This document shows, piece after piece, positions 23,881 through 63,320 of a stretch of 64,000 nucleotides of DNA; within the stretch, counting starts at the first letter, position 1; each line of letters opens with the position of its first letter. The position numbers were made by a program, and so were the translations under genes. The DNA comes from Methanomicrobia archaeon (lineage in GTDB: Archaea; Methanobacteriota_B; Thermococci; Methanofastidiosales; NM3): NCBI GenBank assembly GCA_030603445.1, contig JAUVXU010000004.1:42656-106655 (forward strand). The letters are read 5' to 3'. Under the pieces are notes generated by a model. The model did not search any database, was not told where the DNA came from, and was given only the letters and a program-made list of their open reading frames with translations.

Positions 23881-23918
23881 AAAATGCAGTATTATCTTGT
23901 CTAGCAGACAATATGCTA

Positions 23919-25327: not shown

Positions 25328-25586
25328 ATACCAATAAATAAATTGTTGTATTTAAGATTTTTCGTTGAAACAATCATGTATTCTAAAAAAAATAAAAATT
25401 ATTAATATTTAAATAATTTTACAATAGTTTTAACTTGTTTCAAGTTGTTCATACCACATAAATACTAGTTATTTTTGGATATATGGGCCATATTATGTTT
25501 TATTTATAATATGGTATAATATCTGCACGTTTCTTGTTCGAAAAAGAGAATCATAAGAAATCAATGTTATTTAATGAGCAACGCCG

Positions 25587-26891: not shown

Positions 26892-27017
26892 AATATTTGT
26901 TTTGTAATCTTACATATATACTTTTCTGCATAATAGTTTAGTATATTAATACCAAAAAACAAATATATTTTAATATAATAAAATATATAAAATATTTCCG
27001 TTTATTCATCAAAATTA

Positions 27018-33054: not shown

Positions 33055-34254
33055 GTGATTATTATGCATTACTTACGTTGTATAACTTGTGGAAAGCGCT
33101 ATGAACCTGATGATATAGTGTACAACTGCTCATGCGGGTCCATCCTTGAGGCTGTAATAGACCTTAGCGAAGTTGAAAATATATTTGATGGTGTGAATCC
33201 TTCTGTATGGAAGTACAGCTCGTTTCTTCCTGTCGAAAAAAAAGCATCGCTGCATGAGGGGGGAACCCCCCTATATGAATCAATAAATCTTAAAAAAGAC
33301 ATAGGTTACAAAAGATTGTTTATAAAAAATGAAGGCGAGAACCCCACCTGCTCATTCAAAGACAGAGGAATGACAGTAGGTGTCAGCAAGGCACTGGAAC
33401 TGGGGATGAAAAAAGTTGCATGCGCTTCTACAGGGAACACGTCTGCATCTCTTGCAGCCTACTCTGCCCACGCAAATCTAGAATGCTTCGTGATGATCCC
33501 GTCAGGAAAAATAGCACTCGGGAAACTTGCACAGGCAATAATTTATGGTGCAAAGGTAATCCCCATAAACGGGAACTTCGACCAGGCACTTGAAGCTGTT
33601 ATGTCTGCCTCTAAAGCGTTTGGCATCTACTTGCTAAACTCCATAAATCCCTATAGGCTTGAAGGCCAAAAAACTATAGCATTTGAGATATACGACCAGC
33701 TTGGGGAAGTGCCAGACAGGATAATACTTCCCGTAGGAAATGCAGGGAACATATCCGCCATATGGAAGGGATTCAAGGAACTAAAAGGAGCAGGGATAAC
33801 GGATGCTCTCCCAAAAATGTCCGGTATCCAGGCGCAGGGATCCATGCCTATGGTAAACATGTATATTAAAGGAGAAGAAACGCTTGTCCCAGAAAAGAAT
33901 CCTGACACCTTGGCAACAGCCATTCGTATCGGAAATCCTGTCAGCTGGCAAAAAGCAATAAATGCGGTGCGTGAGTCAAAAGGCCTAATGGAGTCCGTTA
34001 CCGACGAGGAGATACTTGCAGCGCAAAGAAAGCTGTCCTCACGCGAGGGCATCTTTGTCGAACCTGCATCGGCCTCATCCGTTGCAGGCCTTATGAAGTT
34101 GCATGAGAATGGAGATATTGATGAAGATGAGACTACGGTCCTCATCACAACAGGACACGGCCTAAAGGACCCTAATGCCGTGACCGAGTCGATTAAAATA
34201 ATGGATCCTATTGATTGTGATATGGATACTTTGAGAAAAATACTAGGTGAATGA
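33055..34254 (+). CDS. thrC: threonine synthase
   Basis: PLP-lysine motif 'NPTCSFKDRG'. 399 aa. Confidence 0.85.
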   Translation: MIIMHYLRCITCGKRYEPDDIVYNCSCGSILEAVIDLSEVENIFDGVNPSVWKYSSFLPVEKKASLHEGGTPLYESINLKKDIGYKRLFIKNEGENPTCSFKDRGMTVGVSKALELGMKKVACASTGNTSASLAAYSAHANLECFVMIPSGKIALGKLAQAIIYGAKVIPINGNFDQALEAVMSASKAFGIYLLNSINPYRLEGQKTIAFEIYDQLGEVPDRIILPVGNAGNISAIWKGFKELKGAGITDALPKMSGIQAQGSMPMVNMYIKGEETLVPEKNPDTLATAIRIGNPVSWQKAINAVRESKGLMESVTDEEILAAQRKLSSREGIFVEPASASSVAGLMKLHENGDIDEDETTVLITTGHGLKDPNAVTESIKIMDPIDCDMDTLRKILGE

Positions 34255-35287
34255 AATGAAACTAAACGCAGCAGTCCTAGGAGCGACCGGAATGGTTGGA
34301 CAGCGATTTGTGAAAATGTTGAGTGAAAGCAATTGGTTTGAAGTAGAGTGTATTAGCGCCTCAAAGAGAACAGCAGGAACACGATATAGAGACAACGCTC
34401 TTGGATTCGAATATTCGGACGATATACTTGACATGACCATTGAAGACACCACCAAGAATATCCTAAAAGACCACGATATTGATATTGCATTCTCTGCAAT
34501 TCCTGCCGACATTGCAGGCAAGGTAGAAGCGGATCTTGCAGAAAAAGTTGCTGTTGCCACAAACTCTGCAGCACACCGCATGGATGATGATGTCCCACTA
34601 CTGATACCTGAAGTGAATCCGGACCATTTGGGATTAATAGATGTCCAACGAAAGAAAGGGTGGGAAGGAAGCCTTGTTACAAACCCCAACTGTTCAACTA
34701 TAGTAATGGTGCTATCACTAAAACCCTTGTACGATGCCTTCGGGATAAAAGATATAAAAGTAGCCACGATGCAGGCGGTATCTGGCGCAGGATTTACTGG
34801 CGTATCCTCCATGGGAATACTTGATAATGTCATCCCCTATATCGGAAATGAGGAACACAAGATGCAGACAGAGCCAAAAAAGCTTTTGGGAAGCCTAGAA
34901 GGCGGGAAGATCATCGATGCAAGCTTCAACGTTACTGCACTTTGTACACGTGTGCCGGTCATAGACGGCCACACCGAATCCATATTTGTTGAATTGGAAA
35001 GCGACCCAACAGCAGATGAGTTCACCGAGGCACTGCGTACGTTCAAAGGGTTGCCACAAGAACTAAATTTGCCGTCAGCACCAAAAAATCCTATCGAGAT
35101 ACGCCCTGTCCCGCAACCACGGATGCACCGTGATTTGGGAAATGGTATGGCAGTGACTGCTGGGCGCATCGAGAAGGTGGCGCCTAACAAGTTCAAATAT
35201 GTTGTAATGGGGCATAATACTATTAGAGGCGCTGTTGGCGCATCCATCCTAAATGCAGAGCTTATGGCAGAGAAAAAGTACCTATAA
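34247..35287 (+). CDS. asd: aspartate-semialdehyde dehydrogenase
   Basis: 'AVLGATGMVGQ' NAD(P) fold. Active-site 'NPNCSTI'. Confidence 0.85.
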   Translation: MNEMKLNAAVLGATGMVGQRFVKMLSESNWFEVECISASKRTAGTRYRDNALGFEYSDDILDMTIEDTTKNILKDHDIDIAFSAIPADIAGKVEADLAEKVAVATNSAAHRMDDDVPLLIPEVNPDHLGLIDVQRKKGWEGSLVTNPNCSTIVMVLSLKPLYDAFGIKDIKVATMQAVSGAGFTGVSSMGILDNVIPYIGNEEHKMQTEPKKLLGSLEGGKIIDASFNVTALCTRVPVIDGHTESIFVELESDPTADEFTEALRTFKGLPQELNLPSAPKNPIEIRPVPQPRMHRDLGNGMAVTAGRIEKVAPNKFKYVVMGHNTIRGAVGASILNAELMAEKKYL

Positions 35288-35293
35288 GGAGCA

Positions 35294-36337
35294 GTGAACA
35301 TGAAAAAGTTACGAATCGCAGTAATAGGCCTTGGCGTGGTCGGTACAGGCTTTCTTACTTTGCTTGACGAGAAAAAGGAAGTATTGGAAGACAAATACGA
35401 CCTTACATATGATGTCGTGGCGGTCTGCGACAAAATGCGAGGCTCAATTTATAATCCGGATGGTTTGGATGTTTCCCTCATCCTTAAGGAATCTCCTATG
35501 GCTGATGGACTGGAAGGAACACGAGGCCTTTCCTCTTTTGATATAATAAAGAAACCCGAGGTGGATGTGGTAATAGAAGCAACACCTACAAACCTCAAGA
35601 CAGGAGGAGTCGGGCTTGAGCATGCCAGACGCGCGCTAAGTGCTGGCAAACACTTCATATCAACTAACAAAGCCCCGCCTGCCATAGCATACAAAGAGCT
35701 TACAGACATTGCAAAAAACAATAATGTCTACTACGGATTTGAGGGCACGATACTCTCTGGCACACCAGCAATATCCTTGGCAATACACGGCCTTCCTGCA
35801 AGCGAATTTAAGTCCATAAGGGGTGTTTTAAACGGCACTACGAACTTCATTCTAGAGCGCATGGAAAATGATGGCATGGACTTTGATGAAGCGCTTTTGC
35901 TCGCACAGTCCAAAGGCTATGCTGAGGCAGATCCCTCAAGCGACATTGATGGGTGGGATGTATGTGCAAAGGTCGTTATCATGGCAAACAACATGCTAGG
36001 CTCCAACATGACCCCGGATGATGTCGAGGTAAGGGGATTGCGCAATATAGGCTTATCAGATGTTGAAGCTGCAAAGAAAAAGAAAATGAGGATCAAGATG
36101 GTAGGTTCACTCACCCGCAAGGATAATGGCGGCATCAAAGCGTGTGTTGTGCCCGAATTAGTTGACAGGAGCGACCCGCTCTATCATGTGCACGGGGTGA
36201 CAAATGCTCTTGTATTTGATACAGACACAACTGACACTGTCACTGTCATGGGACCAGGAGCAGGAGGGCGCAGTGCCGGATACGCCATGCTCTACGACCT
36301 TGTTGAAATGCACCGCCACCGCAAACGCCTCTACTGA
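35294..36337 (+). CDS. hom: homoserine dehydrogenase
   Basis: 'IAVIGLGVVGTG' Rossmann fold. Homoserine-DH catalytic domain. Last gene of the lysC-thrB-thrC-asd-hom operon. Confidence 0.8.
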   Translation: MNMKKLRIAVIGLGVVGTGFLTLLDEKKEVLEDKYDLTYDVVAVCDKMRGSIYNPDGLDVSLILKESPMADGLEGTRGLSSFDIIKKPEVDVVIEATPTNLKTGGVGLEHARRALSAGKHFISTNKAPPAIAYKELTDIAKNNNVYYGFEGTILSGTPAISLAIHGLPASEFKSIRGVLNGTTNFILERMENDGMDFDEALLLAQSKGYAEADPSSDIDGWDVCAKVVIMANNMLGSNMTPDDVEVRGLRNIGLSDVEAAKKKKMRIKMVGSLTRKDNGGIKACVVPELVDRSDPLYHVHGVTNALVFDTDTTDTVTVMGPGAGGRSAGYAMLYDLVEMHRHRKRLY

Positions 36338-36373: not shown

Positions 36374-37012
36374 GTGAAGGCTAATTCTAGGAACAACACT
36401 TGGCAGCAGCTGGCAGGGATTTGTGGCATGTTGTCCCCGTTTGTTGCCTTTGTGGCAATATCTATTGCAATTTCAAATGCGCCGCCTTTTGTGTGGAAGG
36501 AGAACTGGCTTAGCGACCTTGGGGTCTACGAAGGAGCGTCATATTACTTCAATACGGGGATTTTTTTTACAGGCATCCTGGGAATAGGGCTTGGCAGCGG
36601 GTTGTACCGCAAGTATATGAAATCACGAACTTCAAGAATAGGGGCCGCACTATTTATTTCTGGTTCAGTAGCATTGTGCGGAGTAGGGGTGTTTACAGAA
36701 AACGCAGGTGATATCCACTTCTACACCTCCGCCCTCTTCTTCATTCTTGTACCATTATCCATAATTATTATGGGTGTTTATGATATAGTGCACTACCATA
36801 TTAAGCAAGCGTACCTAACGACTGCATGCGCCACTGGCGCCTATATCGCGTGGCTATTGCCATGGCCTGGAACAGGTGGCGCGCTTCCAGAAGCTGCTGC
36901 CGCAATACTACTTAGTATCGTATCGTTCATATACGGCATGACACTTGCTGCACCATATTGTCCCCTTAAAAACAAACAATGCATATCTACCAAAAAACAG
37001 GAACAGGCCTAA
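36374..37012 (+). CDS. integral membrane protein (about 6 TM, DUF998-like)
   Basis: Hydrophobic helices throughout. No catalytic motif recognised. Confidence 0.4.
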   Translation: MKANSRNNTWQQLAGICGMLSPFVAFVAISIAISNAPPFVWKENWLSDLGVYEGASYYFNTGIFFTGILGIGLGSGLYRKYMKSRTSRIGAALFISGSVALCGVGVFTENAGDIHFYTSALFFILVPLSIIIMGVYDIVHYHIKQAYLTTACATGAYIAWLLPWPGTGGALPEAAAAILLSIVSFIYGMTLAAPYCPLKNKQCISTKKQEQA

Positions 37013-37440
37013 AGGTCCACAAGGATATTTTCCTTAAAGGTGTTTAGAACAATAGACGTGTTTGTGCGCTCAATGTACTTCATCGTATGCAGCTCCTTTA
37101 CAAATCTGTTAAGATGGTCTCTGTTCTCGAATCGTCCTATGATCACTGCGTCATAATCTCCCGTAACATCATACACCCCGACCACGTTTGGATATTCAAC
37201 TATCTTTTCCTCTATAAAACGAAGCTTTCCCTTCGAGATGTTAAGGTATATTATTGCCCGAAAGTCAAAACCCACCTTCTCTACATCTACGACAGGTATG
37301 TATCCTTTGATGATTCCGTTATCTTCCATGCGCTTTATGCGATGCGATACCGTACCAACAGAAAGATGAATAATTTGTGCAATCTCCCTAAACGAAAGCC
37401 GTGCATCCTTGTTTAGGACGCGTATTATCTGCTTATCCAC
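37009..37440 (-). CDS. Lrp/AsnC family transcriptional regulator
   Basis: N-terminal HTH 'ARLSFREIAQIIHLSVGTVSHRIKRME'. C-terminal RAM/AsnC_trans domain. 143 aa. Confidence 0.85.
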   Translation of the reverse strand: MDKQIIRVLNKDARLSFREIAQIIHLSVGTVSHRIKRMEDNGIIKGYIPVVDVEKVGFDFRAIIYLNISKGKLRFIEEKIVEYPNVVGVYDVTGDYDAVIIGRFENRDHLNRFVKELHTMKYIERTNTSIVLNTFKENILVDL

Positions 37441-37601
37441 CTCGTCTATATTTTCCCCTATAATACCATCTCCATTTATCAGTACTCAAGATCCTCATCA
37501 CAGCTGTCGCTCAGTCGGGATTTTTCATCACCTGCATACATTTGAACAAAGTGATAAAAATGTTTCCAAAAAAAAGGAATAAAAAGAAAGGATGGGAAAG
37601 C

Positions 37602-38822
37602 TTATTTTACAGGCTGACCCTGTTCACGGGTCCATCGCTGCGATTCACCACGCACCACCATATCTATGGCGCCAACAGGGCATACAACAGCGCAGAGTGC
37701 GCATCCAAGGCACTCCTCGTCATCAATGTCGTTTATCTTCGGGACCTTTATTGCCCCTCCGCCAGTATCGCCGCATGCCACCGTGCACCTATTGCAGTGA
37801 AGGCATTTTCCAACGTCCACTTCAGGGTATAGGTGGTCCTCGACCTCGAGATCCTCATATGATGTCACCGCGTCAAGTGCGACTCCCACCATATCAGCGA
37901 CGGTATCATACCCCTGCCCATCCATAAACTCAAGTGTCTTTCGCTTCCATTTCTCCACAATCCCAAAGCCATACCACATGGCTGCTGTGACATTCTGGGT
38001 CGTTGCTGCGCCAAGCATTATGTGCTCTACAGCATTTTTCCAGCTGTCAATGCCGCCTACCCCGGAAATTGGCAGCTTCACCTCTTTTGCAAGCTCGGCA
38101 ACTATGCGAAGGGCTATAGGGCGTACCTGCGGGCCGCTGTTGCCTGAGACCAGTCCCCTTCCAAGAACGTTTGGCGCCACCACCTTTTGGTAGATATCAA
38201 CATCTATTATCCCTGCAACAGTGTTAATGGCTGCAAGCGCATCTGCGCCCCCCTTCTTTGCGGCCTTTCCCATCTGCACTATATCTGTGACGTTTGGCGT
38301 AAGCTTTGTCATCACAGGTATTGACACCTCGTCCTTTACCGCTTTTGTCACCCCGTGGACTAGCTGCGGGTCCTGCCCTATGAACATGCCCATATGCTCC
38401 TCCGGGCATCCGTGGGGGCAGGATACGTTTAGCTCTATTATGCTTGCGCCATGCTCCTCGCACCATCTTCCAAGTGCTGCCCAATCGTCAAGATCGGGTG
38501 TTGCCATTATCGATACTATAAACGGCGCCTTGGTATCCTGCAGCACCTTTATCTCCTTATCCCACCACTCAAGGCCATGTGTTGTTATAAGCTCGCAGTT
38601 CTGCAGACCGTAAAGTGAGTTATGGCGCCTTGCGCCCATAAGGCGCGGCCTGACATCCGGCCTGACGTTCTTGTCAAAAGACAGTGTCTTGACGACGCAA
38701 GAGCCCCATCCCTTATCAATTATCTTACGCATATGCTCCCCAGTAAGTGTCGGAGACGCAGACCCTATAAAGAACGGATTGTCAAATTCTATTCCTAAAA
38801 ACTCTGTTCGTAATGATGCCAT
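37602..38822 (-). CDS. PreA-like dihydropyrimidine dehydrogenase catalytic subunit paralog 1 (DHOD-family TIM barrel + C-terminal 2x[4Fe-4S])
   Basis: 'NVSCPHGCPEEHMGMFIGQDPQLVH...IPVMTKLTPNVTD...GGADALAAINT' aligns with E. coli PreA from memory ('NFSCPQM...MGSDVGQSPELVE...LPMLAKMTPNIGD...GGADGIAAINT'). C-terminal 'CLGCALCAVVCPVGAI' is a ferredoxin motif. The ORF is open to 38885, but M22 at 38822 gives the conserved N-terminus 'MASLRTEFLGIEFDNP'. Confidence 0.75.
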   Translation of the reverse strand: MASLRTEFLGIEFDNPFFIGSASPTLTGEHMRKIIDKGWGSCVVKTLSFDKNVRPDVRPRLMGARRHNSLYGLQNCELITTHGLEWWDKEIKVLQDTKAPFIVSIMATPDLDDWAALGRWCEEHGASIIELNVSCPHGCPEEHMGMFIGQDPQLVHGVTKAVKDEVSIPVMTKLTPNVTDIVQMGKAAKKGGADALAAINTVAGIIDVDIYQKVVAPNVLGRGLVSGNSGPQVRPIALRIVAELAKEVKLPISGVGGIDSWKNAVEHIMLGAATTQNVTAAMWYGFGIVEKWKRKTLEFMDGQGYDTVADMVGVALDAVTSYEDLEVEDHLYPEVDVGKCLHCNRCTVACGDTGGGAIKVPKINDIDDEECLGCALCAVVCPVGAIDMVVRGESQRWTREQGQPVK

Positions 38823-38826
38823 TTCC

Positions 38827-40056
38827 TCACACCCCCTTCTCCACTGGCGGCCCTTGTTCACGGGTCCATCGCTGCGATTCACCACGCACCACCATATCTA
38901 TGGCGCCAACAGGGCATACAACGGCGCAGAGTGCGCACCCAAGGCATTTCTCATCATCTATGTCGTTTAGATAAGGGGTTGTTATGGCGCCTCCTCCCGT
39001 GTCCCCACAGGCTATCTTGCATCTCTGGCATTGCACGCACACATCGTCGTTTACTTCAGGATACAGATGGTCCTCGACCTCAAGATCCTCATAACTGCTA
39101 AGAGACGGCAGTGCAAGGCCAATTAGCTCGTCTACCGATTCGTAGCCTTCCTCGTGCATGAACTCAAGCATACGGCGCTTCCATTCCTGGACAAATCCAA
39201 ATCCCTCAAACATCGCCTCCGTTACCACCTGAACAGTGGATGCGCCAAGCATCATCATCCCGATAGCTGCCTGCCAGCTGTCAATGCCGCCTATTCCTGA
39301 AATTGGCAGCTTTACGTTTTGTGCAAGGTCTGCAACCCACTTGTACGCAATCATACGCACAGACGCTCCGCTGTTGCCGGAGATGGTGCCATGTGTTAGC
39401 ACCATTGGCGCAGGAAGCCTTTTGTATATGTCAACAGCATTTATGCCTGCAATAGTATTAATGGTGGATAGCGCATCTGCGCCCCCTTTCTTTGCAGCCT
39501 TTCCCATCTGCACTATATCTGTGACGTTTGGCGTAAGCTTTGTCATCACAGGTATTGACACCTCGTCCTTTACCGCTTTTGTCACGTCATGGACTAGCTG
39601 CGGGTCCTGGCCTATGAACATGCCCATATGCTCCTCCGGGCATCCGTGGGGGCAGGATACGTTTAGCTCTATTATGCTTGCGCCATGCTCCTCGCACCAT
39701 CTTCCAAGTGCTGCCCAATCGTCAAGATCGGGTGTTGCCATAATGGAGACCATCATCGGGGCATCAAGCCCTTTTAGCATCCTCAACTGCCCTTCCCACC
39801 AATCAAGATTGTGTGTGGTGATAAGCTCGCAGTTCTGCAGATTTATTATATTAGAATAACGGCCAATACCATTTAGGCGCGGCCTGACATCCGGCCTGAC
39901 GTTCTTGTCAAGGGACAGTGTCTTAACGACATAGGACCCCCATCCGGCATCGACTATCTTTCGCATATGTGCTCCGTCAACAGTAGGGGATGCGGAGCCT
40001 ATGATTAGTGGATTATCCATCTCAAATCCCAAAAACTCAGTTCTTAAATCTGTCAT
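38827..40056 (-). CDS. PreA-like dihydropyrimidine dehydrogenase catalytic subunit paralog 2
   Basis: Same architecture as paralog 1. A ~95-aa central block and the last ~30 aa are identical to paralog 1, while other regions are ~50-60% identical. Confidence 0.75.
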   Translation of the reverse strand: MTDLRTEFLGFEMDNPLIIGSASPTVDGAHMRKIVDAGWGSYVVKTLSLDKNVRPDVRPRLNGIGRYSNIINLQNCELITTHNLDWWEGQLRMLKGLDAPMMVSIMATPDLDDWAALGRWCEEHGASIIELNVSCPHGCPEEHMGMFIGQDPQLVHDVTKAVKDEVSIPVMTKLTPNVTDIVQMGKAAKKGGADALSTINTIAGINAVDIYKRLPAPMVLTHGTISGNSGASVRMIAYKWVADLAQNVKLPISGIGGIDSWQAAIGMMMLGASTVQVVTEAMFEGFGFVQEWKRRMLEFMHEEGYESVDELIGLALPSLSSYEDLEVEDHLYPEVNDDVCVQCQRCKIACGDTGGGAITTPYLNDIDDEKCLGCALCAVVCPVGAIDMVVRGESQRWTREQGPPVEKGV

Positions 40057-40062
40057 TCCTAA

Positions 40063-41229
40063 TCACCTAGCCGCCCTCAGTCCCATCACAGATGGCGTTA
40101 CTGAATACTTTGACCCTGCTGCAGCACGCACCTGCTCTATATCGTTTGTTGTTAGTACCACGGGCTTCTGGTGTTCATCTCCCCTATTGATGGTCACGGT
40201 CTCAAAGAAACCTCGCTTGAGCCCAAACTCCAACAGGGCGGATACAACTCCCCCATCCTGAACATTTCCCTCAACGCGTTTTGCCCTCGCAGAAAAGAAC
40301 ATGACATCTTTTGTGTTTGCCCACTGTTTATGAAATGCTGTTGTCCTTGGGCATACCATGTAACAATAGCCGCATGCAACATCCGGGCATCTGTTGATGC
40401 CATATGGGCGATCGTTGTCAAATTTTATATTATTATCAGGGCATACGAGCCCGCAAGCGCCGCAGTCCACACACTGCCCTTGAAGTATCACATCCTCTTC
40501 AAGCTCTGTGAAGATGTTTTTTTCGTTGACATTGTGCATGAATTTCTCAGGTTCTTCCTCCTTGTCCCATGTGTCAAGGAAATTAATTTTAAATCCTTTT
40601 TTCTTGCGCTTTTTCCCATTCTTATATGCCTGATTCTTGTTAAACTCATATAGCTTGCCAAGTGCATCCTTATCATGGATATCCTCTACTTCTATTACTC
40701 CTGTGACAAGCGCTTTTTTGAAAAATATCTTTCCGGGATCTGTGCGAAGGACAACTGTTGAATAACCTTCTGAAGAACCGATTCCTCCAACAGATATATC
40801 TGAAAAATCAGCCATAAGGTCGGGGCACAGCTTGCAATTTCCCCGTGCATAAGGCGCAAACTCTTTTATTTGGCATGAAAGGACATCCTCAGGCGTATGC
40901 ACATATAGCCTGCCGCCTGATATGTTCACCTTCTTCACCATATCCATAGGGACGCCCCACTTGTGTCTGATAAACTCTTCAACACTATTATAGGCGAAGT
41001 TCTCTGTACAAAATAATCCTATGACAAACTGTTTTCCTCTTGGCCAAAATGGATAATCGAAGTAAACACGTTCCTCCACCTTTGGAAGCGCCCTTAATAC
41101 CTTGGTCATCTTCTCGATTTTTCGAACTGCGTTGGCTTGGCAACCCACACCGACAAAACAGTTCTTGGCCAATAGGCATCCGTTGGTGCCGGATGCATTG
41201 GCTTTAACTATCCTCATTACATCTGCCAT
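40063..41229 (-). CDS. FrhB/FdhB-family flavo-iron-sulfur protein (coenzyme F420 hydrogenase/dehydrogenase beta-subunit-like)
   Basis: FrhB N- and C-domain pattern. 4Fe-4S 'CVDCGACGLVCPDN'. Second Cys cluster 'CPDVACGYCYMVCP'. 388 aa. Confidence 0.6.
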   Translation of the reverse strand: MADVMRIVKANASGTNGCLLAKNCFVGVGCQANAVRKIEKMTKVLRALPKVEERVYFDYPFWPRGKQFVIGLFCTENFAYNSVEEFIRHKWGVPMDMVKKVNISGGRLYVHTPEDVLSCQIKEFAPYARGNCKLCPDLMADFSDISVGGIGSSEGYSTVVLRTDPGKIFFKKALVTGVIEVEDIHDKDALGKLYEFNKNQAYKNGKKRKKKGFKINFLDTWDKEEEPEKFMHNVNEKNIFTELEEDVILQGQCVDCGACGLVCPDNNIKFDNDRPYGINRCPDVACGYCYMVCPRTTAFHKQWANTKDVMFFSARAKRVEGNVQDGGVVSALLEFGLKRGFFETVTINRGDEHQKPVVLTTNDIEQVRAAAGSKYSVTPSVMGLRAAR

Positions 41230-41244
41230 GCAGACCCCTTCAGC

Positions 41245-42576
41245 TTATCTGCATTCCTTATCGCTTATAACAAGGGCATTATCAATAACATCAAGGGCGT
41301 TGAGTACCTCTTCCTTGCTAACAATAAGGGGCGGGGCTAAAAGGAGTGTAGTTATCATCTGTAAGAAAAATGTGCCATTTTTGAAGCATTCCGCCTGTAC
41401 CTTCGCAGGGATCGTCTGTATTGGCCTAAACTTATCGTCACGCACCGATGAAGCCTCCTGGGTCTTGGAATCCTTTATAAGTTCTATTCCCCAGAAACAT
41501 CCTTTTCCACGAACATCCCCCACAGACTTGTGGTCCTCTTTTATCTCTTCGAGGCGTTTCTTAAACACTGGTTCTAGTGATGCTGCGCGTTCCACAAGCT
41601 TCTCATCCTCATAAAGTTTTATAGACGCAATACCAGCAGCGCACGCAAGCGCATGTCCTGAGTACGTATGGCCATGAACAAATAGGTTATCTTCAAAGAA
41701 ATCAGATATCTTCTCGCTCATCATTGTTGCCCCAAGGGGAACGTATGTTCCTGAAAGGCCCTTTGCCATAGCCACGATGTCTGGTGATGCCTTCCAGTGC
41801 TCTATTCCGAACATCTTTCCAGTCCTTCCAAATCCGACCATCACCTCGTCATCTATCCACACGACCTCAAGCTCGTCGCATATCTCCCTTATGCGCTCAT
41901 AGTAACCAGGGGGCGGGACAATGACGCCGTTTGACCCAACTATAGGCTCTAGCACAATAGCGGCAACTGTATTTTTCCCTTCCATGATTATCTGGTCCCT
42001 TATAGACTCTGCACATTGCAATCCACAAGAAGGATATGTCATCTTGAAAGGACAGCGGTAGCAGTATGGGTCCACTGCGTGTAAGATGCCTGGATATCCC
42101 GGTTCATTGAAAGTGTATCGTCGCGGGTCTCCAGTAAGTGAGATCGATATTCCCAAAGAACCATGATAAGACGTGTATCTAGAGATAACCTTGAACTTTC
42201 CGGTATAGTATTTGGCCGCCTTTACTGCAGCTTCTACAGCTTCTGCCCCTGCAACAGAAAAGAAGGTCTTCCTAAACTTGCCTGGTGCTATCTCTGCAAG
42301 CTTCTTTGCCAATGCGGCGCGAGGGGGACACCCCAAAGCTGGAGCCACATAGGCATAAGTGTTCAACTGATCTATTATAGCTTTGTTCACTACAGGATTT
42401 TTATGCCCATAGTTAGTAGATATAAGCTGTGAAGAAAAATCGATATACTTTTTCCCATTGACATCAGTCAAGTATGCGCCATCTGCATCAACGATTGGAA
42501 GAACGTTCACATTACGTTGTGCAGACCAAGTCCTTACTACATATTTTTTTTCCATTTCTGCAAAATTCTCATCCAT
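41245..42576 (-). CDS. class III (omega) aminotransferase, beta-alanine/omega-amino acid:pyruvate type
   Basis: 'SGAEAVEAAVKAAK', 'DEVMVGFGRTGKMF' (PLP-Lys) and 'TYSGHALACAAG' motifs. ORF open to 42636. ATG at 42576 is preceded by GGGAGG. Confidence 0.75.
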   Translation of the reverse strand: MDENFAEMEKKYVVRTWSAQRNVNVLPIVDADGAYLTDVNGKKYIDFSSQLISTNYGHKNPVVNKAIIDQLNTYAYVAPALGCPPRAALAKKLAEIAPGKFRKTFFSVAGAEAVEAAVKAAKYYTGKFKVISRYTSYHGSLGISISLTGDPRRYTFNEPGYPGILHAVDPYCYRCPFKMTYPSCGLQCAESIRDQIIMEGKNTVAAIVLEPIVGSNGVIVPPPGYYERIREICDELEVVWIDDEVMVGFGRTGKMFGIEHWKASPDIVAMAKGLSGTYVPLGATMMSEKISDFFEDNLFVHGHTYSGHALACAAGIASIKLYEDEKLVERAASLEPVFKKRLEEIKEDHKSVGDVRGKGCFWGIELIKDSKTQEASSVRDDKFRPIQTIPAKVQAECFKNGTFFLQMITTLLLAPPLIVSKEEVLNALDVIDNALVISDKECR

Positions 42577-42819
42577 ACAGAATCCTCCCAGTATTCTGTT
42601 TGTCCTATTACAAAAGAACACAAACAATGCTCCCATATAGTGATTGTCTAATCAGCACTGAATAATAGAACTAATATATTTAATTATTCGGCATATTTAA
42701 TATTTTCGGTGTTATCAATTTTTAATGTTAGTATTACGTTTTTTTTAAAAAATAATCTAAAATTATGAAATATAAAGCATATCTTACCCATTTTCATACC
42801 GTAATGCTTAATACGGAGG

Positions 42820-43770
42820 TTATTTATATACAATGCGAGTTCCTGTCCTACCCTCTAAAGAACCAATAATCGATCCTATTGAAGAAATAATAGCAACGTC
42901 CCCTCCTGCTTTGATAAATTCCATGGCTGCTGAGACTTTTGGCCCCATACTTCCTGGAGGGAAGTGCCCTTCTCTTGTGTACTGCTGCGCCTCGCTAAGT
43001 GTCATAACATCTATCTTTTCCTCCTTATGCGCTCCGAAATGTTTGCTAACATGCTCAACATCCGTCATTAACATTAGTATACTAGCGCCTATGTCCGTTG
43101 CAAGCAGCTTGGCAGATAGATCTTTATCAATTACCGCCTCAACGCCAATTAGTTCCCCATCCGCTTCATGCACGGGGATTCCTCCGCCCCCGGAAGCTAT
43201 GACAATTACCCCGTTATCAGCAAGCAGTTTAACAGTGCTTGCTTCAACATTTCTTTTTGGTATTGGTGAAGGGACCACGCGCCGGTACCCATCTTTTACG
43301 GACTGCGCAACATATTTTATAGGCCATCCTTTGAGTACAGAGAGTTTCTGGGCCTCCTTTTGGGTATAGAAGGGTCCGACAGGCTTTATAGGGTGCTTAA
43401 ATGCCTCATCAGAGATGTCCACCACAACTTGATTAACAATCGCCACCACTGGGACAAAAAGCCCCTCGCAGGCTAATCTGTTATGGAGGGCCTGTTGAAT
43501 CATGTACCCCACCTGTCCTTGCGTCATTGCACCAAGCACATCTAAGGGCTGTTGAGGCACGTGGTCCTTTGCCTCCTCTTGTTGGATTAAGAGAGAACCC
43601 ACCTGCGGGCCATTTCCATGTGTTAATACGATGCGATGCCCTGCCTTGACTAATTGCACTAGCTGTTCAGATATAAGAGATATATTAGAGAGCTGTTCCT
43701 TGAGAGTTCCTTTCTGATCAGCTCGTTTTATCGCATTTCCGCCCAATGCAACAACGATAGTGCTGACCAT
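42820..43770 (-). CDS. arcC: carbamate kinase
   Basis: 'VVALGGNAI' and 'VLTHGNGPQVG' amino-acid-kinase motifs. 316 aa, typical CK length. Confidence 0.8.
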   Translation of the reverse strand: MVSTIVVALGGNAIKRADQKGTLKEQLSNISLISEQLVQLVKAGHRIVLTHGNGPQVGSLLIQQEEAKDHVPQQPLDVLGAMTQGQVGYMIQQALHNRLACEGLFVPVVAIVNQVVVDISDEAFKHPIKPVGPFYTQKEAQKLSVLKGWPIKYVAQSVKDGYRRVVPSPIPKRNVEASTVKLLADNGVIVIASGGGGIPVHEADGELIGVEAVIDKDLSAKLLATDIGASILMLMTDVEHVSKHFGAHKEEKIDVMTLSEAQQYTREGHFPPGSMGPKVSAAMEFIKAGGDVAIISSIGSIIGSLEGRTGTRIVYK

Positions 43771-43803
43771 AAAATCACCGATATCCTAAAAGAAAAATGA
43801 AAG

Positions 43804-44652
43804 CTACGGCAGCAGCTTGCACATATCCGTGTATGTCTCTGGCCGCCTGTCCCTGAAGAACTGCCAGTCGTTTCGAACATCGCGTATCATGTCAATATCA
43901 ATATCTGCGATCACGACCTCATCCTTGTCCTCCGAACCTTGTGATAGTAGTTGCCCTCTTGGATCGCACACATAAGTGCTTCCAAAGAATCTGCCAAACT
44001 TCCAAGGTTTCTCTATCCCGACCCTATTTATTGCAATTGTGAAGAACTGATTAGCCACACAATGTGCGCGCTGTTCCAACTCCCATAAATATTGTGACTT
44101 GCCAGCCACTGTTGCCGACGGGTTGTAAGTTATCTCTGCTCCTGCAAGACCCAAGAGGCGCGCTGATTCGGGGAAATGGCGGTCATAGCAGGTGTATATC
44201 CCGACTCGACCATACTTGGTCGGGAATACAGGATATCCCAAGTTTCCTGGCTTAAAGTAGAACTTCTCCCAAAAACCTGGTTTTGTATGTGGAATATGTA
44301 TCTTCCTAAACTTTCCCAGATACGTTCCATCTGCATCATACACAGCTGTCGTGTTGTAGTAGACTCCTTCCATTGCCTCCTCATAGACAGGTATGACGGT
44401 GACCATATCATACTGTTTGCCAATCTCTGCTATATTGTCTGTTGTTGGTCCCGGTACAGGTTCAGCGAGATCATACCACTTCGGCTCCTGTTCTGCGCAG
44501 AAGTAAGGGCCGTTAAAGAGTTCCTGAAGCCCTATTATCTGTACGCCTTTATCTCCTGCCTCATCAAGCAGCTTCTCATGTTTCTTGACCATGCCCTCGA
44601 TTGTTCCAGGGTATGAGCATTGAATTCCTCCCACTTTCACAATTCTTGTCAA
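43804..44652 (-). CDS. carbon-nitrogen hydrolase, beta-ureidopropionase-like (N-carbamoyl amidohydrolase)
   Basis: 'RKIHIPH', 'TCYDRHFPE' (catalytic Cys) and 'NPSATVAGKSQYLWELEQRAHCVANQFFTIAINRVG' closely parallel eukaryotic/bacterial beta-alanine synthase, as recalled. Confidence 0.65.
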   Translation of the reverse strand: MTRIVKVGGIQCSYPGTIEGMVKKHEKLLDEAGDKGVQIIGLQELFNGPYFCAEQEPKWYDLAEPVPGPTTDNIAEIGKQYDMVTVIPVYEEAMEGVYYNTTAVYDADGTYLGKFRKIHIPHTKPGFWEKFYFKPGNLGYPVFPTKYGRVGIYTCYDRHFPESARLLGLAGAEITYNPSATVAGKSQYLWELEQRAHCVANQFFTIAINRVGIEKPWKFGRFFGSTYVCDPRGQLLSQGSEDKDEVVIADIDIDMIRDVRNDWQFFRDRRPETYTDMCKLLP

Positions 44653-44729
44653 TCAATCCACCCCATAAAAAGCAAAAAATATATGTTGTAAAATATATAT
44701 AATTGTTTCGGTAATTTATAAACGATATG

Positions 44730-44779
44730 AATAATTTTTATATAAAATTAGAATGTTTTAATAATTTTTATATAAAATT
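44730..44779. repeat. two copies of 20-bp direct repeat AATAATTTTTATATAAAATT (44730..44749 and 44760..44779) in a divergent promoter region
   Basis: Perfect 20/20 identity with a 30-bp period. Each copy contains a TATA-like core. Confidence 0.7.
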
Positions 44780-44954
44780 GTAGTATATATATAGGTATTA
44801 AACAAATATTTGCATATATTCTTCTAATTCATCCTTAAAAAAGAGAAATCATCATATTCTATTTTTATAATCAATATATAAAATATATAGAATATTGTGC
44901 TAGACGTATACTATATAGATTAAGTATTTATATGGATGTGCTAACGTTCGTTGC

Positions 44955-46223
44955 ATGCTTGATTGGATTATTGCATTAAGCATTGCTGAAAAGGCGATAA
45001 TTGCTCTTGCCCTGGCTTCAGGATTCTACATGGCTTGGACAATTGGTGCAAACGACGTGGCAAATTCTATGGGCACATCTGTAGGAAGCGGTGCGCTTAC
45101 TTTGAAGAGAGCCGTGATTGTAGCAGGCATTTTCGAGTTCTTAGGGGCGGTCCTTGTAGGGCGTCATGTATCGGCAACCATCAAGTCAGGAATAATAACC
45201 CCCGGGCTAATAAACGATCCAAAAGTGTATATGCTTGCGATGCTATCATGCCTAATAGCAGCTGCCTTTTGGGTGTTTGTTGCAACATACTACTCCCTTC
45301 CAATCTCCACCACCCATTCAATAGTTGGGGCTGTGATAGGGGTTGGGCTGTTAATATCATACCAAATGGTAAATTTTTCCATTGTCAACAGCATTGTGCT
45401 CTCATGGGTTTTCTCGCCTTTGTTAGGGGCGCTCTTAGCATTTATATTTTTCAAACTTATCGTTCGCTCAATCTTCTCTAAGAAGGAACCACTTCACGCA
45501 CTGCGAAACGTTGGTCCAGTGCTTGTATTCTTCAACATTTTTATCATATGCCTGTCAGTCTTGTATAAGGGGCTTGCAAAAATTGGGCTTTCTTTTGGGG
45601 CCCTCCAGGCTATAGAACTTTCTGCTGTGATTGCCATTACCGTTGCAATGGCATCTGCATACATATTCCTTAATATGGATTACAGAAAGCCGCGAAGCGA
45701 CTCCGAGAAATACAGGCAAGTAGAAAGAATATTTGGATATTTGCAAATAATGACAGCATGTTCTGTTGCATTTGCGCACGGGGCAAACGATGTTGCAAAC
45801 GCCATAGGTCCATTAGCGGCCATAATGCACACGATGGAGGCAGGAACTATAGATGCAACTTCTGGCATACCGCTCTACATCCTGTTTATAGGGGGTGCAG
45901 GGATTGTTATTGGGATCTCGACATGGGGCTACAAGGTCATCGACACTGTCGGTAAGAAAATAACTGAGATAACGCCTTCAAGGGGTTTTTGTGCTGAGCT
46001 TAGTACATGCATAACAGTGCTCTTATGCTCAAAGATAGGCCTTCCGATATCAACAACGCAAGTATTGATAGGATCCGTAATAGGGGTAGGATTCGCCAGA
46101 GGTATATCAGCCATAGATTTTAGCATTATTAGAAAGATAATAACCTCATGGCTTCTGACGCTTCCCATATCTGCATTAAGCAGTATGCTTATATATATCG
46201 TATTGAAAGGAATAATACTATGA
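44955..46223 (+). CDS. inorganic phosphate transporter, PiT family
   Basis: Duplicated 'GANDVAN' signature at both N- and C-half ('GANDVANSMG' and 'GANDVANAIGP'). 422 aa. Confidence 0.85.
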   Translation: MLDWIIALSIAEKAIIALALASGFYMAWTIGANDVANSMGTSVGSGALTLKRAVIVAGIFEFLGAVLVGRHVSATIKSGIITPGLINDPKVYMLAMLSCLIAAAFWVFVATYYSLPISTTHSIVGAVIGVGLLISYQMVNFSIVNSIVLSWVFSPLLGALLAFIFFKLIVRSIFSKKEPLHALRNVGPVLVFFNIFIICLSVLYKGLAKIGLSFGALQAIELSAVIAITVAMASAYIFLNMDYRKPRSDSEKYRQVERIFGYLQIMTACSVAFAHGANDVANAIGPLAAIMHTMEAGTIDATSGIPLYILFIGGAGIVIGISTWGYKVIDTVGKKITEITPSRGFCAELSTCITVLLCSKIGLPISTTQVLIGSVIGVGFARGISAIDFSIIRKIITSWLLTLPISALSSMLIYIVLKGIIL

Positions 46224-46226
46224 GGG

Positions 46227-46928
46227 ATGTGGATGGTAAGATGGAAAGACAGGATTAGGGTGCCCTTGCTAGGTGCCCTTCGGAGCGACCCGTTCGAAAA
46301 GTTGAACGAGCACGCAAAGATGGTGAAAGTATGCACAGAATCTCTGAAGCACGCCATGAAGGCCTACTTTGAAGGGGATTTTGATACGTTTGATAAGTAC
46401 AGGCTTAAGGTTATAAAAGACGAGGAGAAGGCCGATATCATCAAGAGAAACATACGAAATCACCTGCCTAAAAGCATACATATGTCTGTTGACAAGAGAA
46501 ATTTCCTCCTTCTTTTGACACAGCAGGATAATATACTCGATTATGAAGAGGATCTGGTACAATGGTTGCATATGCGAATCAAGACGTATAATAATGATAT
46601 CAGTGCCGACTTCATGCATCTCACCGACAAGGTGATAGAAACAATTGGTTATTTCGAGAAAGCCATCTTCAATCTTCCTGATGTCCTAGAGTCGTCTTTT
46701 GCAGATGACGAGAGAAATGAGACAAAAAAATACATAAAGAAAGTGAGCTTAGGGGAGCATGAATCTGATGTCCTTGAACAAGCCTTGTCCAAGAAGATAT
46801 TCTCTTTGGAAGATCAGCTGACGCCAATAGACATCTACCACTTATTACGGGCTGTACAGATACTTGGAGAAATATCAAATCACGCAGAAAACGCCTCGGA
46901 CAGGATAAGAAACCTGCTTGCAAGGTGA
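46227..46928 (+). CDS. DUF47/PhoU-like phosphate transport regulator (PiT-associated)
   Basis: 233 aa helical protein. Conserved pairing with PiT. Start is 4 nt after the PiT stop. Confidence 0.65.
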   Translation: MWMVRWKDRIRVPLLGALRSDPFEKLNEHAKMVKVCTESLKHAMKAYFEGDFDTFDKYRLKVIKDEEKADIIKRNIRNHLPKSIHMSVDKRNFLLLLTQQDNILDYEEDLVQWLHMRIKTYNNDISADFMHLTDKVIETIGYFEKAIFNLPDVLESSFADDERNETKKYIKKVSLGEHESDVLEQALSKKIFSLEDQLTPIDIYHLLRAVQILGEISNHAENASDRIRNLLAR

Positions 46929-47817
46929 TGCTATTCTAAGTATTATTGTTCACGGCGGGGCCTGGAACATGCCAAAAAAACTTGAGGCCGCGCATCTAAA
47001 AGGCGTCTGTGAGGCATGCAAGGCGGGCCGTGATGCATTGCTTGATGGCAATGGGAGTGTTAATGCAATAGCTGATGCCCTTGTCATATTAGAAGATGAC
47101 GAGACGTTTGATGCAGGCGTCGGTTCCTTCCTAAACAGTGTGGGCGATGTAGAGCTAGATGCGGGGATTATGACTGGAGACAGCGGAGACTTTGCCTGCT
47201 GTGGTGCAGTATCACGCCTGCGCAACCCGATTCTTGCATGCAAGAAGCTGCTTGAGATTGCCCCAAACAGGTTGCTCGTCTGTGAGGGAATGCACAAGTT
47301 TGCCGAAGAGAACGGTTTTGAGTTAATAGACAACGATGAATTGAAAATCTCAAGAGAGATAGAGCGCTACAAGAACAAGTCCGCCCCTGTTGAAAAATAT
47401 TTCTTGCCGTCAGACACTGTTGGTGCGGTGGCACTAGATGAATATGGGCAAATCGCGGCTGCAAACACCACAGGAGGAACTCCTGGAAAACTTCCCGGTC
47501 GCGTCGGCGACTCCCCCATCGTTGGTTGTGGCATCTACGCAGGCCCGAACGCAGGCATTGCTGCTACAGGATATGGGGAACCAATAATCAAGACCGTGCT
47601 TTGCAAGTGCGTTTATGATGAATATTCTAAGTGCAAAGACATCGACCTTGCAACAAATCACGGCATTGGCATTCTCTCTTTATACGGGTGGGGCGGGGTA
47701 ATTGCCCTAGACAAAGAAGGAAACAGCGCCGCGCGCCACAACACCACAAAAATGCCGTTTGCAAGATGGGATGAGAAAAATAATAAAATTGAAAAAAAGA
47801 TAAGCAACCCCCTTTAA
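46918..47817 (+). CDS. isoaspartyl peptidase / L-asparaginase (Ntn-hydrolase, plant-type)
   Basis: Autoproteolytic nucleophile context 'SDTVGAVALD'. 'HGGAW' N-terminus. Confidence 0.8.
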   Translation: MQGDAILSIIVHGGAWNMPKKLEAAHLKGVCEACKAGRDALLDGNGSVNAIADALVILEDDETFDAGVGSFLNSVGDVELDAGIMTGDSGDFACCGAVSRLRNPILACKKLLEIAPNRLLVCEGMHKFAEENGFELIDNDELKISREIERYKNKSAPVEKYFLPSDTVGAVALDEYGQIAAANTTGGTPGKLPGRVGDSPIVGCGIYAGPNAGIAATGYGEPIIKTVLCKCVYDEYSKCKDIDLATNHGIGILSLYGWGGVIALDKEGNSAARHNTTKMPFARWDEKNNKIEKKISNPL

Positions 47818-63298: not shown

Positions 63299-63320
63299 GA
63301 AACAATGGCTCCCTTGAATA

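Follow-up and report, generated by a model that had tools for sequence, protein, structure and literature searches.

A circularly permuted FrhB-type protein beside PreA in Methanofastidiosales: a dihydropyrimidine dehydrogenase putatively fed by reduced coenzyme F420

Introduction

How is a dihydropyrimidine dehydrogenase (DPD) supplied with electrons when the subunit that oxidizes NAD(P)H is not encoded beside it? This question is raised by a gene cluster in a 64,000-nucleotide (nt) stretch of DNA from an archaeon of the Methanofastidiosales (assembly GCA_030603445.1, contig JAUVXU010000004.1, positions 42,656 to 106,655; the whole stretch is called the window hereafter, and related loci are given by L numbers). 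According to the open reading frames (ORFs) of the window and Pfam/NCBIfam scans, the cluster consists of seven co-directional genes on the minus strand (37009-44652), encoding a CN-hydrolase, a carbamate kinase, a class-III aminotransferase, an FrhB-family flavo-iron-sulfur (Fe-S) protein, two paralogous DPD catalytic subunits (PreA-1 and PreA-2) and an Lrp/AsnC-family regulator. An earlier note on this DNA, made from the sequence alone, had listed all these genes on one strand, as the scans found them, and had read them as a cluster resembling reductive pyrimidine catabolism with a differently coupled DPD.

DPDs are known to work with NADPH (animals and many bacteria), NADH (PreTA of Escherichia coli) or ferredoxin (PydAc of clostridia). 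In DPD and PreTA, electrons pass from NAD(P)H to flavin adenine dinucleotide (FAD), through two Fe-S clusters of the PreT part and two of the PreA part to flavin mononucleotide (FMN), and on to uracil (PMC7332683). The reading favored here, with a probability of roughly 0.6, is that the window encodes a DPD fed through a circularly permuted FrhB protein (cpFrhB), probably by reduced coenzyme F420 (F420H2), within an anaerobic route from uracil through beta-alanine to malonate semialdehyde.

The PreA paralogues as catalytic subunits

Both PreA copies (409 amino acids for PreA-1 and 406 for PreA-2) combine PF01180 with PF14697, and both exceed the cut-off of the PreA equivalog model NF006183 (335 bits; scores in Table 1), whereas the PyrD models stay below theirs, with 195-203 bits for the best of them (cut-offs 269-270) and 141-144 bits for the archaeal one (cut-off 330). 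They are 73% identical to each other and 36-37% identical to E. coli PreA. The alignment with pig DPD (1GT8) spans its residues 531-841, the FMN domain, and 912-1007, the C-terminal Fe-S domain. The copies keep Lys574, Asn609, Glu611, Ile613, Asn668, Ser670, Lys709, Asn736 and Thr737 of the pig enzyme, which contact the pyrimidine or FMN in its published structures. The catalytic Cys (Cys671) in the SCPHG loop is retained in both, and the two CxxCxxCxxxC motifs are intact in both and in all orthologues. By these profile scores and residues, the proteins are assigned to the PreA/DPD type and not to PyrD, the alternative that the earlier note had considered for them.

As in PreT-PreA of E. coli and pig DPD (1H7W/1GT8), the catalytic subunit joins an FMN-binding domain with the fold of dihydroorotate dehydrogenase (DHOD) to a C-terminal 2x[4Fe-4S] domain. 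The E. coli system differs in that its PreA is served by PreT, a subunit that handles FAD and NAD(P)H and has two Fe-S clusters at its N-terminus. The window lacks PreT; PreA is present there as two paralogues and adjoins a flavoprotein of the unrelated FrhB fold, with three Fe-S clusters. A tblastn search with E. coli PreT gave no match in the window, L001-L003 or L006-L010 and only a weak generic Pyr_redox match in L004, and Pfam scans found no Pyr_redox_2 protein in the window, so that the missing PreT pointed out earlier is borne out in the related loci as well.

The two paralogues predate the divergence of the window lineage from the NM3 genome (L002, GCA_004212155), have both been retained since, and are both catalytically intact in sequence; a PreA-1/PreA-2 heterodimer, or a division of uracil and thymine between them, is possible. 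At the DNA level, the two genes share near-identical tracts at gene nt 316-560 and about 1100-1202, which hold exact runs of 131, 89 and 68 nt against a background identity of about 60-70%. Because the same blocks have diverged between the NM3 paralogues (just 85% and 69% identical as amino acids), these tracts are the product of recent lineage-specific gene conversion.

A circularly permuted FrhB module

The assignment of the neighboring protein to the FrhB/FdhB family, made in the earlier note, stands, but the two Pfam domains occur in reversed order, which had not been noticed. PF04432 (FrhB_FdhB_C) matches residues 22-186 (E 1.5e-35, 122.8 bits), PF04422 (FrhB_FdhB_N) matches residues 312-381 (E 2e-11, 44.1 bits), and a two-cluster ferredoxin lies between them at residues 248-295. 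The layout of cpFrhB is thus FrhB_C (1-215), a Lys-rich helical linker, a 2x[4Fe-4S] ferredoxin (236-300) and FrhB_N (301-388) with a QDGG sequence. Among the best 120 matches in a search of 5.8 billion proteins, which served as the homologue set for domain order, 110 have the order ferredoxin-N-C; apart from the window protein, only two relatives, at 73% and 71% identity, have the order C-ferredoxin-N. When aligned by HMMER to FrhB (3ZFS_C), cpFrhB matches in two swapped pieces, with residues 309-387 on FrhB 9-88 and residues 57-214 on FrhB 113-278, and it aligns likewise in two swapped pieces with Fsr (7NP8/9TN7). These alignments were relied on because sequential structural aligners cannot follow a permutation; the Foldseek comparison with the PDB spans about 200 columns. 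When 1.84 billion cluster representatives were searched exhaustively with a profile, about 15 clusters matched cpFrhB colinearly, i.e., are themselves permuted. A gene fusion or frameshift artefact was rejected as the cause of the reversed order, which recurs in 16 diverged proteins and at about 35 genome loci. Judged from these alignments, the protein is a circular permutant, and it belongs to a small family known so far only as the putative F420-oxidizing subunit of methanogen glutamate synthase. For Methanothermobacter, the Fig. 9 legend of Mills et al. 2013 (PMC3591093) had already pointed out the permutation in the FrhB-like subunit of this putative F420-dependent enzyme, a protein named FGltS(II)-alpha by Susanti and Mukhopadhyay and MTH193 by Kaster et al.

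The AF2 model of cpFrhB, a confident one (pLDDT 84, pTM 0.88), has as its best structural neighbors, at E values of 1e-11 to 1e-6 (Foldseek, PDB), only F420-dependent FrhB modules, namely those of Frh, Fsr, FdhB and F420-reducing CODH and Fmd, whereas the ferredoxin-dependent HCAR is matched at E 2e-3 only. FrhB has this fold, and so do FpoF, Fsr in its N-terminal half and the subunits of F420-reducing CODH and Fmd (3ZFS/4OMF, 7NP8, 8RIU, 8RJA). Enzymes of this family resemble cpFrhB in carrying FAD and a non-canonical four-Cys [4Fe-4S] cluster, to which Fsr and FpoF add a 2x[4Fe-4S] ferredoxin, and Frh, Fsr, FpoF, CODH and Fmd illustrate the reuse of FrhB modules for coupling diverse enzymes to F420. 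In cpFrhB, the intrinsic cluster is liganded by C30, C74, C132 and C135, which are conserved across 16 permuted members and have C104, C134, C192 and C195 as their counterparts in FrhB; the resulting motif, Cx43Cx57CxxC, corresponds to PCX40CX54CX2C of Fsr. The QDGG flavin region is kept, and the FrhB loop that faces F420 (with S209-V210) is kept as DISVGGIGS. The differences from FrhB, Fsr and FpoF lie in the domain order (canonical Fer-N-C there, C-Fer-N here), in the partner enzyme and in one fewer lysine in the IGKGK turn.

Genomic context of the permuted FrhB genes

A context census, in which one genome per species was scanned and contexts were mapped by tblastn, returned 80 loci. At about 27 loci of Methanobacteriaceae, the permuted gene lies inside GATase-GXGXG-cpFrhB-GltS(FMN) operons, which are taken to encode a putative F420-dependent glutamate synthase (PMC3448663, PMC3087415, PMC3591093). 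The window protein is colinear with the operon member of Methanobacterium ferruginis over residues 25-379 (31% identity, E 1e-49, BLASTP). No glutamate synthase genes were found in the window by Pfam scans, nor in L001-L005, L091 and L093. FGltS(II)-alpha of Methanobacteriales (MTH193 / MTBMA_c06440) has the same permuted architecture as the window protein and follows the same logic, in which an FrhB module would stand in for GltD and feed a partner with a 2x[4Fe-4S] domain and FMN; it differs in that the partner is glutamate synthase there and PreA here, and in that the proteins linked to PreA stand apart as a subgroup with high scores. Both GltS(FMN) and PreA have the 2x[4Fe-4S] domain beside the FMN site, a trait that the module would require of a partner. 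In the representative-cluster search, the window's own cluster scored 841 bits, the three next 282-304 bits and the following match 190 bits, and the top four clusters are PreA-adjacent wherever checked.

Among the loci mapped, PreA adjacency is confined to a group of Methanofastidiosales and Theionarchaea, where five divergent archaeal architectures were found. The six-gene cluster from CN-hydrolase to PreA-2 is present in the window and L001 and recurs in the NM3 genome as a 71-78% identical set. In Theionarchaea (L004), a uracil/xanthine permease (Xan_ur_permease), a CoA-transferase, an aminotransferase, a CN-hydrolase, cpFrhB, PreA and AsnC are found together. L091 starts with biotin-dependent membrane decarboxylase genes, followed by aminotransferase, CN-hydrolase, cpFrhB and PreA, and goes on with AsnC, an aldehyde:ferredoxin oxidoreductase (AFOR) with polyferredoxin and an NCS1 nucleobase permease, and L093 has the cpFrhB-PreA pair alone. 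In all five architectures, the cpFrhB and PreA genes are co-directional and 4-6 nt apart, while identity drops to 37-40% for cpFrhB and 44-47% for PreA. Since the six genes recur in two related genomes and the cpFrhB-PreA pair in three more lineages, the arrangement is not due to chance, and the adjacency of an FrhB-like gene to PreA, which the earlier note saw in one locus, proves to be a conserved one.

Other neighbors of permuted FrhB genes were also observed. At five loci of Hydrothermarchaeota and related metagenome-assembled genomes (L020, L026, L032, L040 and L042), the permuted gene lies directly upstream of the gamma/alpha genes of a 2-oxoacid:ferredoxin oxidoreductase, and in the metagenomic L095 it adjoins the gene for F420-dependent methylene-tetrahydromethanopterin (H4MPT) dehydrogenase (Mtd). 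These neighbors hint at further enzymes coupled via the same module.

The accompanying enzymes

The CN-hydrolase is a candidate beta-ureidopropionase (PydC-like). Its triad Glu44-Lys117-Cys155 aligns with the triad columns of 2VHH, 5H8I and 6MG6, and a gap-free NPSAT..LW..E.R stretch aligns with Drosophila beta-ureidopropionase (2VHH). By overall score, the protein is equidistant from Drosophila beta-ureidopropionase (186.2 bits) and N-carbamoylputrescine amidase of Medicago (5H8I; 186.1 bits); the indels after NPSAT show the pattern of beta-ureidopropionase and not that of the amidase. Profile placement, which the earlier note had proposed for choosing between the two enzymes, gave 231.7 bits with AguB (TIGR03381) versus a cut-off of 410.25, and AguB identity was rejected on this score. 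It is gene context that tips the balance towards beta-ureidopropionase. CN-hydrolases that neighbor PreA in L004, L006, L008 and L091 are 61-71% identical to that of the window; the gene is found with PydA (PreA) in the window, L004, L006 and L091, and with PydB only in L008, L096 and L097.

The closest PreA relatives outside the clade (38-44% identical) are clustered with dihydropyrimidinase, in Hodarchaeales, Thorarchaeota and Anaerolineae. In Hodarchaeales (L008), the CN-hydrolase (61% identical), aminotransferase (42%) and PreA (44%) lie with a dihydropyrimidinase so named by PGAP and an aldehyde dehydrogenase; a Thorarchaeota cluster has the same gene set, including dihydropyrimidinase, plus cytidine deaminase, and an Anaerolineae bacterium has a CN-hydrolase-PreA-dihydropyrimidinase trio. 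The view of the cluster as one resembling reductive pyrimidine catabolism is strengthened by orthologous genes that sit with dihydropyrimidinase in Hodarchaeales and by the same gene types in Thorarchaeota and Anaerolineae. Compared with the bacterial and Asgard Pyd clusters (PydA/B/C/D and malonate-semialdehyde dehydrogenase), whose Hodarchaeales representatives have PreA, CN-hydrolase and aminotransferase orthologous to those of the window, the window lacks PydB, has a nearby AFOR in place of an NAD-dependent aldehyde dehydrogenase, and adds a carbamate kinase.

The best PDB match of the aminotransferase is taurine:2-oxoglutarate aminotransferase 6JIX, and it is 42-56% identical to those of the L008 and L091 clusters; it would be a beta-alanine aminotransferase (PydD-like). 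The carbamate kinase, which among related clusters is found only in the window lineage, L001 and L002, has 1E19 of Pyrococcus furiosus as its best solved relative (324 bits). Since the P. furiosus enzyme is reported to act as a carbamoyl-phosphate synthetase, the capture of carbamate is the most economical guess for its role. About 3 kb from the cluster lies an AFOR gene with a polyferredoxin gene. This pair recurs beside PreA clusters, with 48-49% identity in L006/L007 and L091 and 78% in L001; the polyferredoxin partner stands at the edge of L004, and an NAD-type aldehyde dehydrogenase is encoded at the corresponding point of Asgard clusters. The AFOR may oxidize malonate semialdehyde, a step that would give back two electrons in the form of reduced ferredoxin, so that the route would be redox-neutral. 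From synteny, the CoA-transferase of L004 and the biotin-dependent decarboxylase of L091 would fit further malonate metabolism. Archaeal clusters are also flanked by genes for nucleobase permeases, of the Xan_ur_permease type at L004 and L006 and of the NCS1 type at L091.

As had been stated earlier for the window, a dihydropyrimidinase is missing: Pfam scans found no amidohydrolase among the 55 ORFs scanned, and tblastn with a bona fide archaeal dihydropyrimidinase gave no match in it at E<=0.01. The best 120 matches of the Hodarchaeales enzyme in a protein database are all at least 57% identical and belong to Asgard, Thermoplasmatota and bacteria, so this search is uninformative on Methanofastidiosia. 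An Asparaginase_2 gene (46918-47817) was considered as a ring-opening candidate and rejected, as it is not conserved beside the cluster in L001 or L002.

Proposed electron transfer and pathway

In the proposed mechanism, PreA-1 and PreA-2, each with FMN and two [4Fe-4S] clusters, would reduce uracil or thymine at the C5=C6 bond with electrons that reach them via the adjacent cpFrhB and not via the NADH/FAD subunit PreT. A hydride of F420H2 would be taken up by the FAD of cpFrhB, from which electrons would pass to the intrinsic [4Fe-4S] cluster (C30, C74, C132, C135) and the two clusters of the ferredoxin segment. In PreA they would enter at the pair of C-terminal clusters and go on via FMN to the pyrimidine, for which the Cys of the SCPHG loop is the putative proton donor. 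cpFrhB and PreA would thus form a five-cluster relay like that of Fsr. The CN-hydrolase would cleave N-carbamoyl-beta-alanine, the aminotransferase would convert beta-alanine to malonate semialdehyde, the nearby AFOR may oxidize the latter, the carbamate kinase may trap released carbamate as carbamoyl phosphate, and the Lrp/AsnC protein would regulate the cluster. The family assignments, the permuted domain order, the synteny and the lack of PreT and dihydropyrimidinase in the window are direct observations; that cpFrhB and PreA form a physical complex, which donor and substrates they use and what the AFOR and the carbamate kinase do is inferred. PreT-type proteins are homologues of GltD, the small glutamate synthase subunit. 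By analogy, the same module swap as in the methanogen glutamate synthase appears to have taken place, in which an FrhB-type unit replaces one of the GltD/PreT type. The differently coupled DPD of the earlier note is supported by the PreA identity, the adjacent FrhB module and the absence of PreT from the window, with the partner now refined to a permuted FrhB.

The donor is the weakest link of this proposal, and several observations weigh against the favored reading. The 163-IGKGK turn of FrhB, whose two lysines are thought to contact F420, reads ISGGR in cpFrhB, which has thus lost the first Lys and carries Arg instead of the second. F420 dependence is biochemically unproven even for the glutamate synthase subunit. 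Methanofastidiosales have lost the F420-using H4MPT pathway, which Theionarchaea keep (PMC9635834); the literature examined is silent on F420 biosynthesis in Methanofastidiosales and documents only this loss. HCAR is an FrhB-family member that uses ferredoxin. At L006/L007 (other Methanofastidiosia) and at L008, L096 and L097 (Asgard archaea and Anaerolineae), short PreA proteins of about 390-405 amino acids, with FMN and a single Fe-S domain, have no redox partner encoded next to them, although the Pyd clusters of Asgard and Anaerolineae are otherwise complete; PreA may therefore also take electrons from ferredoxin directly, which is possibly the donor of these short proteins. As for the pathway, dihydropyrimidinase is absent from the window and from all cpFrhB-PreA clusters of the Methanofastidiosales and Theionarchaea loci, and the hydrolase yields carbamate and not carbamoyl phosphate, so that the carbamate kinase is left without an established role.

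Alternative explanations

It is possible, though judged unlikely, that the pathway is as proposed and PreA is fed by reduced ferredoxin, e.g., from the neighboring AFOR; cpFrhB would then be only an Fe-S/FAD wire or a ferredoxin-accepting adaptor, with F420 uninvolved. PydAc of Clostridium chromiireducens, a ferredoxin-dependent DPD, is a precedent for coupling independent of NAD(P)H (PMC7332683). It resembles the present system as a DPD of strict anaerobes in a Pyd-type cluster with no NAD(P)H/FAD module and differs in that its N-terminal Fdx1 is fused to FMN and Fdx2 domains and no flavoprotein partner is present (PMC7332683), while PreA of the window starts at the FMN domain (residue 2 = pig 531) and has a separate FAD/Fe-S protein encoded 6 nt upstream. 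The partnerless PreA proteins, common in anaerobic Asgard and Anaerolineae and found in other Methanofastidiosia, the AFOR with polyferredoxin beside the clusters, the degenerate IGKGK turn, the lost F420-dependent C1 pathway (PMC9635834) and the example of HCAR all speak for ferredoxin. On the other hand, cpFrhB keeps the QDGG flavin region and the F420-facing loop (DISVGxxGS), it matches F420 enzymes far better than HCAR in both sequence and structure, members of the permuted family adjoin F420-linked enzymes, and a flavin hydride site would be superfluous in a pure one-electron wire. A further deviation from the F420H2-fed DPD concerns its catalytic side: it is very improbable that the PreA-like proteins are biosynthetic DHODs, with cpFrhB accepting electrons in place of PyrK. 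DHO_dh is indeed the Pfam fold of the PreA copies, and class 1B DHODs depend on an Fe-S flavoprotein as a separate partner. However, every PyrD model stays under its cut-off and the PreA model is passed, on which ground DHOD identity was rejected; the proteins carry two features of DPD, the SCPHG loop and the 2x[4Fe-4S] domain at the C-terminus, and the neighboring genes are catabolic.

Regarding the purpose of the pathway, the enzymes may be as proposed and yet serve beta-alanine supply for coenzyme A or nitrogen scavenging, in place of carbon and energy catabolism, a version considered improbable. PreTA of E. coli stands outside any full catabolic pathway (PMC7332683), and neither dihydropyrimidinase (Pfam scans and tblastn) nor a CoA-acylating dehydrogenase (Pfam scans) is found in the window. 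Aminotransferases are reversible, so this one could even run from malonate semialdehyde to beta-alanine. The permeases, AFOR, CoA-transferase or biotin-dependent membrane decarboxylase of related clusters suit the catabolism of a carbon skeleton instead. There is also a slight chance that a polyamine (agmatine) route is encoded, with an N-carbamoylputrescine amidase, the carbamate kinase and a putrescine aminotransferase, to which the redox genes would be mere neighbors. The CN-hydrolase is named N-carbamoylputrescine amidase in IMG, AguB is its best NCBIfam match, it is as similar to the Medicago enzyme 5H8I as to beta-ureidopropionase, and carbamate kinase is typical of agmatine deiminase operons. 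Yet the AguB score (232) is far under its cut-off (410), the indels after NPSAT fit beta-ureidopropionase, Pfam scans of the window found no agmatine deiminase or putrescine carbamoyltransferase, and most related clusters lack carbamate kinase; moreover, CN-hydrolase orthologues (61-71% identical) are linked to PreA in at least four lineages and to dihydropyrimidinase in Hodarchaeales, and CN-hydrolase, PreA and dihydropyrimidinase cluster also in Thorarchaeota and Anaerolineae, there by gene type and not by identity. Beyond these, an extended form of the favored F420H2-linked reading is considered improbable: an undescribed anaerobic uracil pathway, in which an F420H2-dependent heteromer of PreA-1, PreA-2 and cpFrhB is combined with non-canonical ring opening and conservation of the ureido group. 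Here, the canonical dihydropyrimidinase, missing in all five architectures of the clade and present in the Asgard and Anaerolineae clusters, would be dispensed with, and carbamate, or carbamoyl phosphate if phosphate cleaves the thioester of the CN-hydrolase, would be handled by the co-transcribed carbamate kinase. A tungsten-type AFOR would oxidize malonate semialdehyde, and the whole route would be redox-balanced.

Implications of the FrhB-PreA pairing

In the literature searched, no paper links FrhB with DPD, or DPD with these archaeal groups. The components and the swapping of FrhB modules are known already; the FrhB-PreA pairing is new. The published survey of pyrimidine catabolism clusters covered bacteria only and required a PydB neighbor (PMC7332683), and for this reason the cpFrhB-PreA clusters lie outside it. 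Public annotations name the PreA genes 'NAD-dependent dihydropyrimidine dehydrogenase subunit PreA', cpFrhB 'Coenzyme F420 hydrogenase/dehydrogenase beta subunit C-terminal domain', and the CN-hydrolase 'N-carbamoylputrescine amidase / acyltransferase / nitrilase-related'; the label 'NAD-dependent' is probably wrong for PreA of this clade.

If true, an FrhB-fed DPD would be a fourth coupling mode of this enzyme, and a new F420-dependent enzyme if F420H2 is the donor. PreA would also provide a second, easily assayed partner for the permuted FrhB family: uracil reduction is simple to follow, and such an assay could settle whether the family oxidizes F420H2, a question that has been open for glutamate synthase since 2011-2013. 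Because GltD and PreT are homologous and both are apparently replaced by the same permuted FrhB, the two systems would make a clean example of the modular exchange of electron-input units. The clusters further suggest that nucleobases supply carbon or nitrogen to the uncultured Methanofastidiosales and Theionarchaea, which bears on the nutrition of these 'fastidious' archaea and on efforts to cultivate them.

Gene layout and regulation

The features of the locus are listed in Table 1. A 98% identical PreA with near-identical neighbors in NCBI carries the label Candidatus Methanofastidiosia. Two starts depart from those of the longest ORFs. That of the aminotransferase was moved from 42636 to M21 (42576), which has GGAGG 8 nt upstream and gives a product of 443 amino acids that exactly matches the gene call in public records. 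The start of PreA-2 is most likely MASLRTEF at 38822, 4 nt past the PreA-1 stop, and not the GTG at 38885, which would give a 59-nt overlap with PreA-1. From the CN-hydrolase to the regulator, the intergenic gaps are 33, about 243, 15, 6, 4 and 161 nt; their sizes suggest two transcription units, one of CN-hydrolase and carbamate kinase and one of aminotransferase, cpFrhB, PreA-1 and PreA-2, followed by the regulator.

Table 1. Genes and other features of the putative pyrimidine cluster and its surroundings (window coordinates).
Feature	Position	Strand	Evidence and remarks
CN-hydrolase, candidate beta-ureidopropionase (PydC-like)	43804-44652	-	TTG start; PF00795 E 1e-60, 205 bits
Carbamate kinase	42820-43770	-	TIGR00746 387 bits, cut-off 358.25; 33 nt downstream of CN-hydrolase
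Class-III (omega-amino acid) aminotransferase, PydD-like	41245-42576	-	PF00202 E 1e-90, 304 bits
cpFrhB, circularly permuted FrhB-family flavo-Fe-S protein	40063-41229	-	PF04432, PF04422, 2x[4Fe-4S]
PreA-1, DPD catalytic subunit	38827-40056	-	DHO_dh + Fer4_21; NF006183 393.5 bits, cut-off 335
PreA-2, paralogue of PreA-1	37602-38822	-	DHO_dh + Fer4_21; NF006183 420.5 bits, cut-off 335
Lrp/AsnC-family regulator	37009-37440	-	PF01037 + HTH_24
AT-rich divergent promoter region	44653-44954		Between CN-hydrolase and phosphate transporter
Aldehyde:ferredoxin oxidoreductase (AFOR)	47870-49696	-	AFOR_N/AFOR_C; ~3 kb from cluster
Polyferredoxin	49699-50100	-	Pfam Fer4

The Lrp/AsnC protein, proposed in the earlier note as the regulator, remains a candidate for this role and is strengthened by its company: of six related archaeal cluster types compared, five have a gene of this family together with PreA, next to or near it in L002, L004, L006 and L091, with none in the stretch of L093 examined. 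In the promoter region, the CN-hydrolase start is preceded, at a distance of about 40-60 nt, by a BRE/TATA-like element, TTACCGAAACAATTATATATA. A sequence of 20 bp, AATTTTATATAAAAATTATT, is repeated directly and without mismatch at 44730-44749 and 44760-44779, with a 30-bp period (2 matches versus 0.06 expected by chance), and is possibly an Lrp/AsnC site or a duplicated TATA element. Just downstream of the repeats, a BRE/TATA-like TACCGAAACA.TTA.ATAT is common to the NM3 locus.

Other features of the window

Divergent from the cluster, a PHO4 phosphate transporter gene and a PhoU-like (DUF47) gene occupy 44955-46928 (+); the same neighbors are found in L001 and not in NM3. On the other side, an ordinary threonine-pathway operon with overlapping genes (30758-36337, +) encodes aspartokinase, homoserine kinase, threonine synthase, aspartate-semialdehyde dehydrogenase and homoserine dehydrogenase, and is followed by a DUF998 membrane protein gene, which also neighbors the AsnC gene in NM3. 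The region 22000-28000 has a GC content of 0.37-0.40 versus 0.44-0.48 around it and may be acquired DNA; it contains genes for a DUF7343 protein, an ASCH protein and a histidine kinase, and a 410-amino-acid ORF (24095-25327) with no Pfam match. At 60640-63818 (-), a partner-switching-like set consists of a HisKA/HATPase kinase, a SpoIIE-type phosphatase, an RsbW-like HATPase_c_2 kinase and two STAS-domain proteins.

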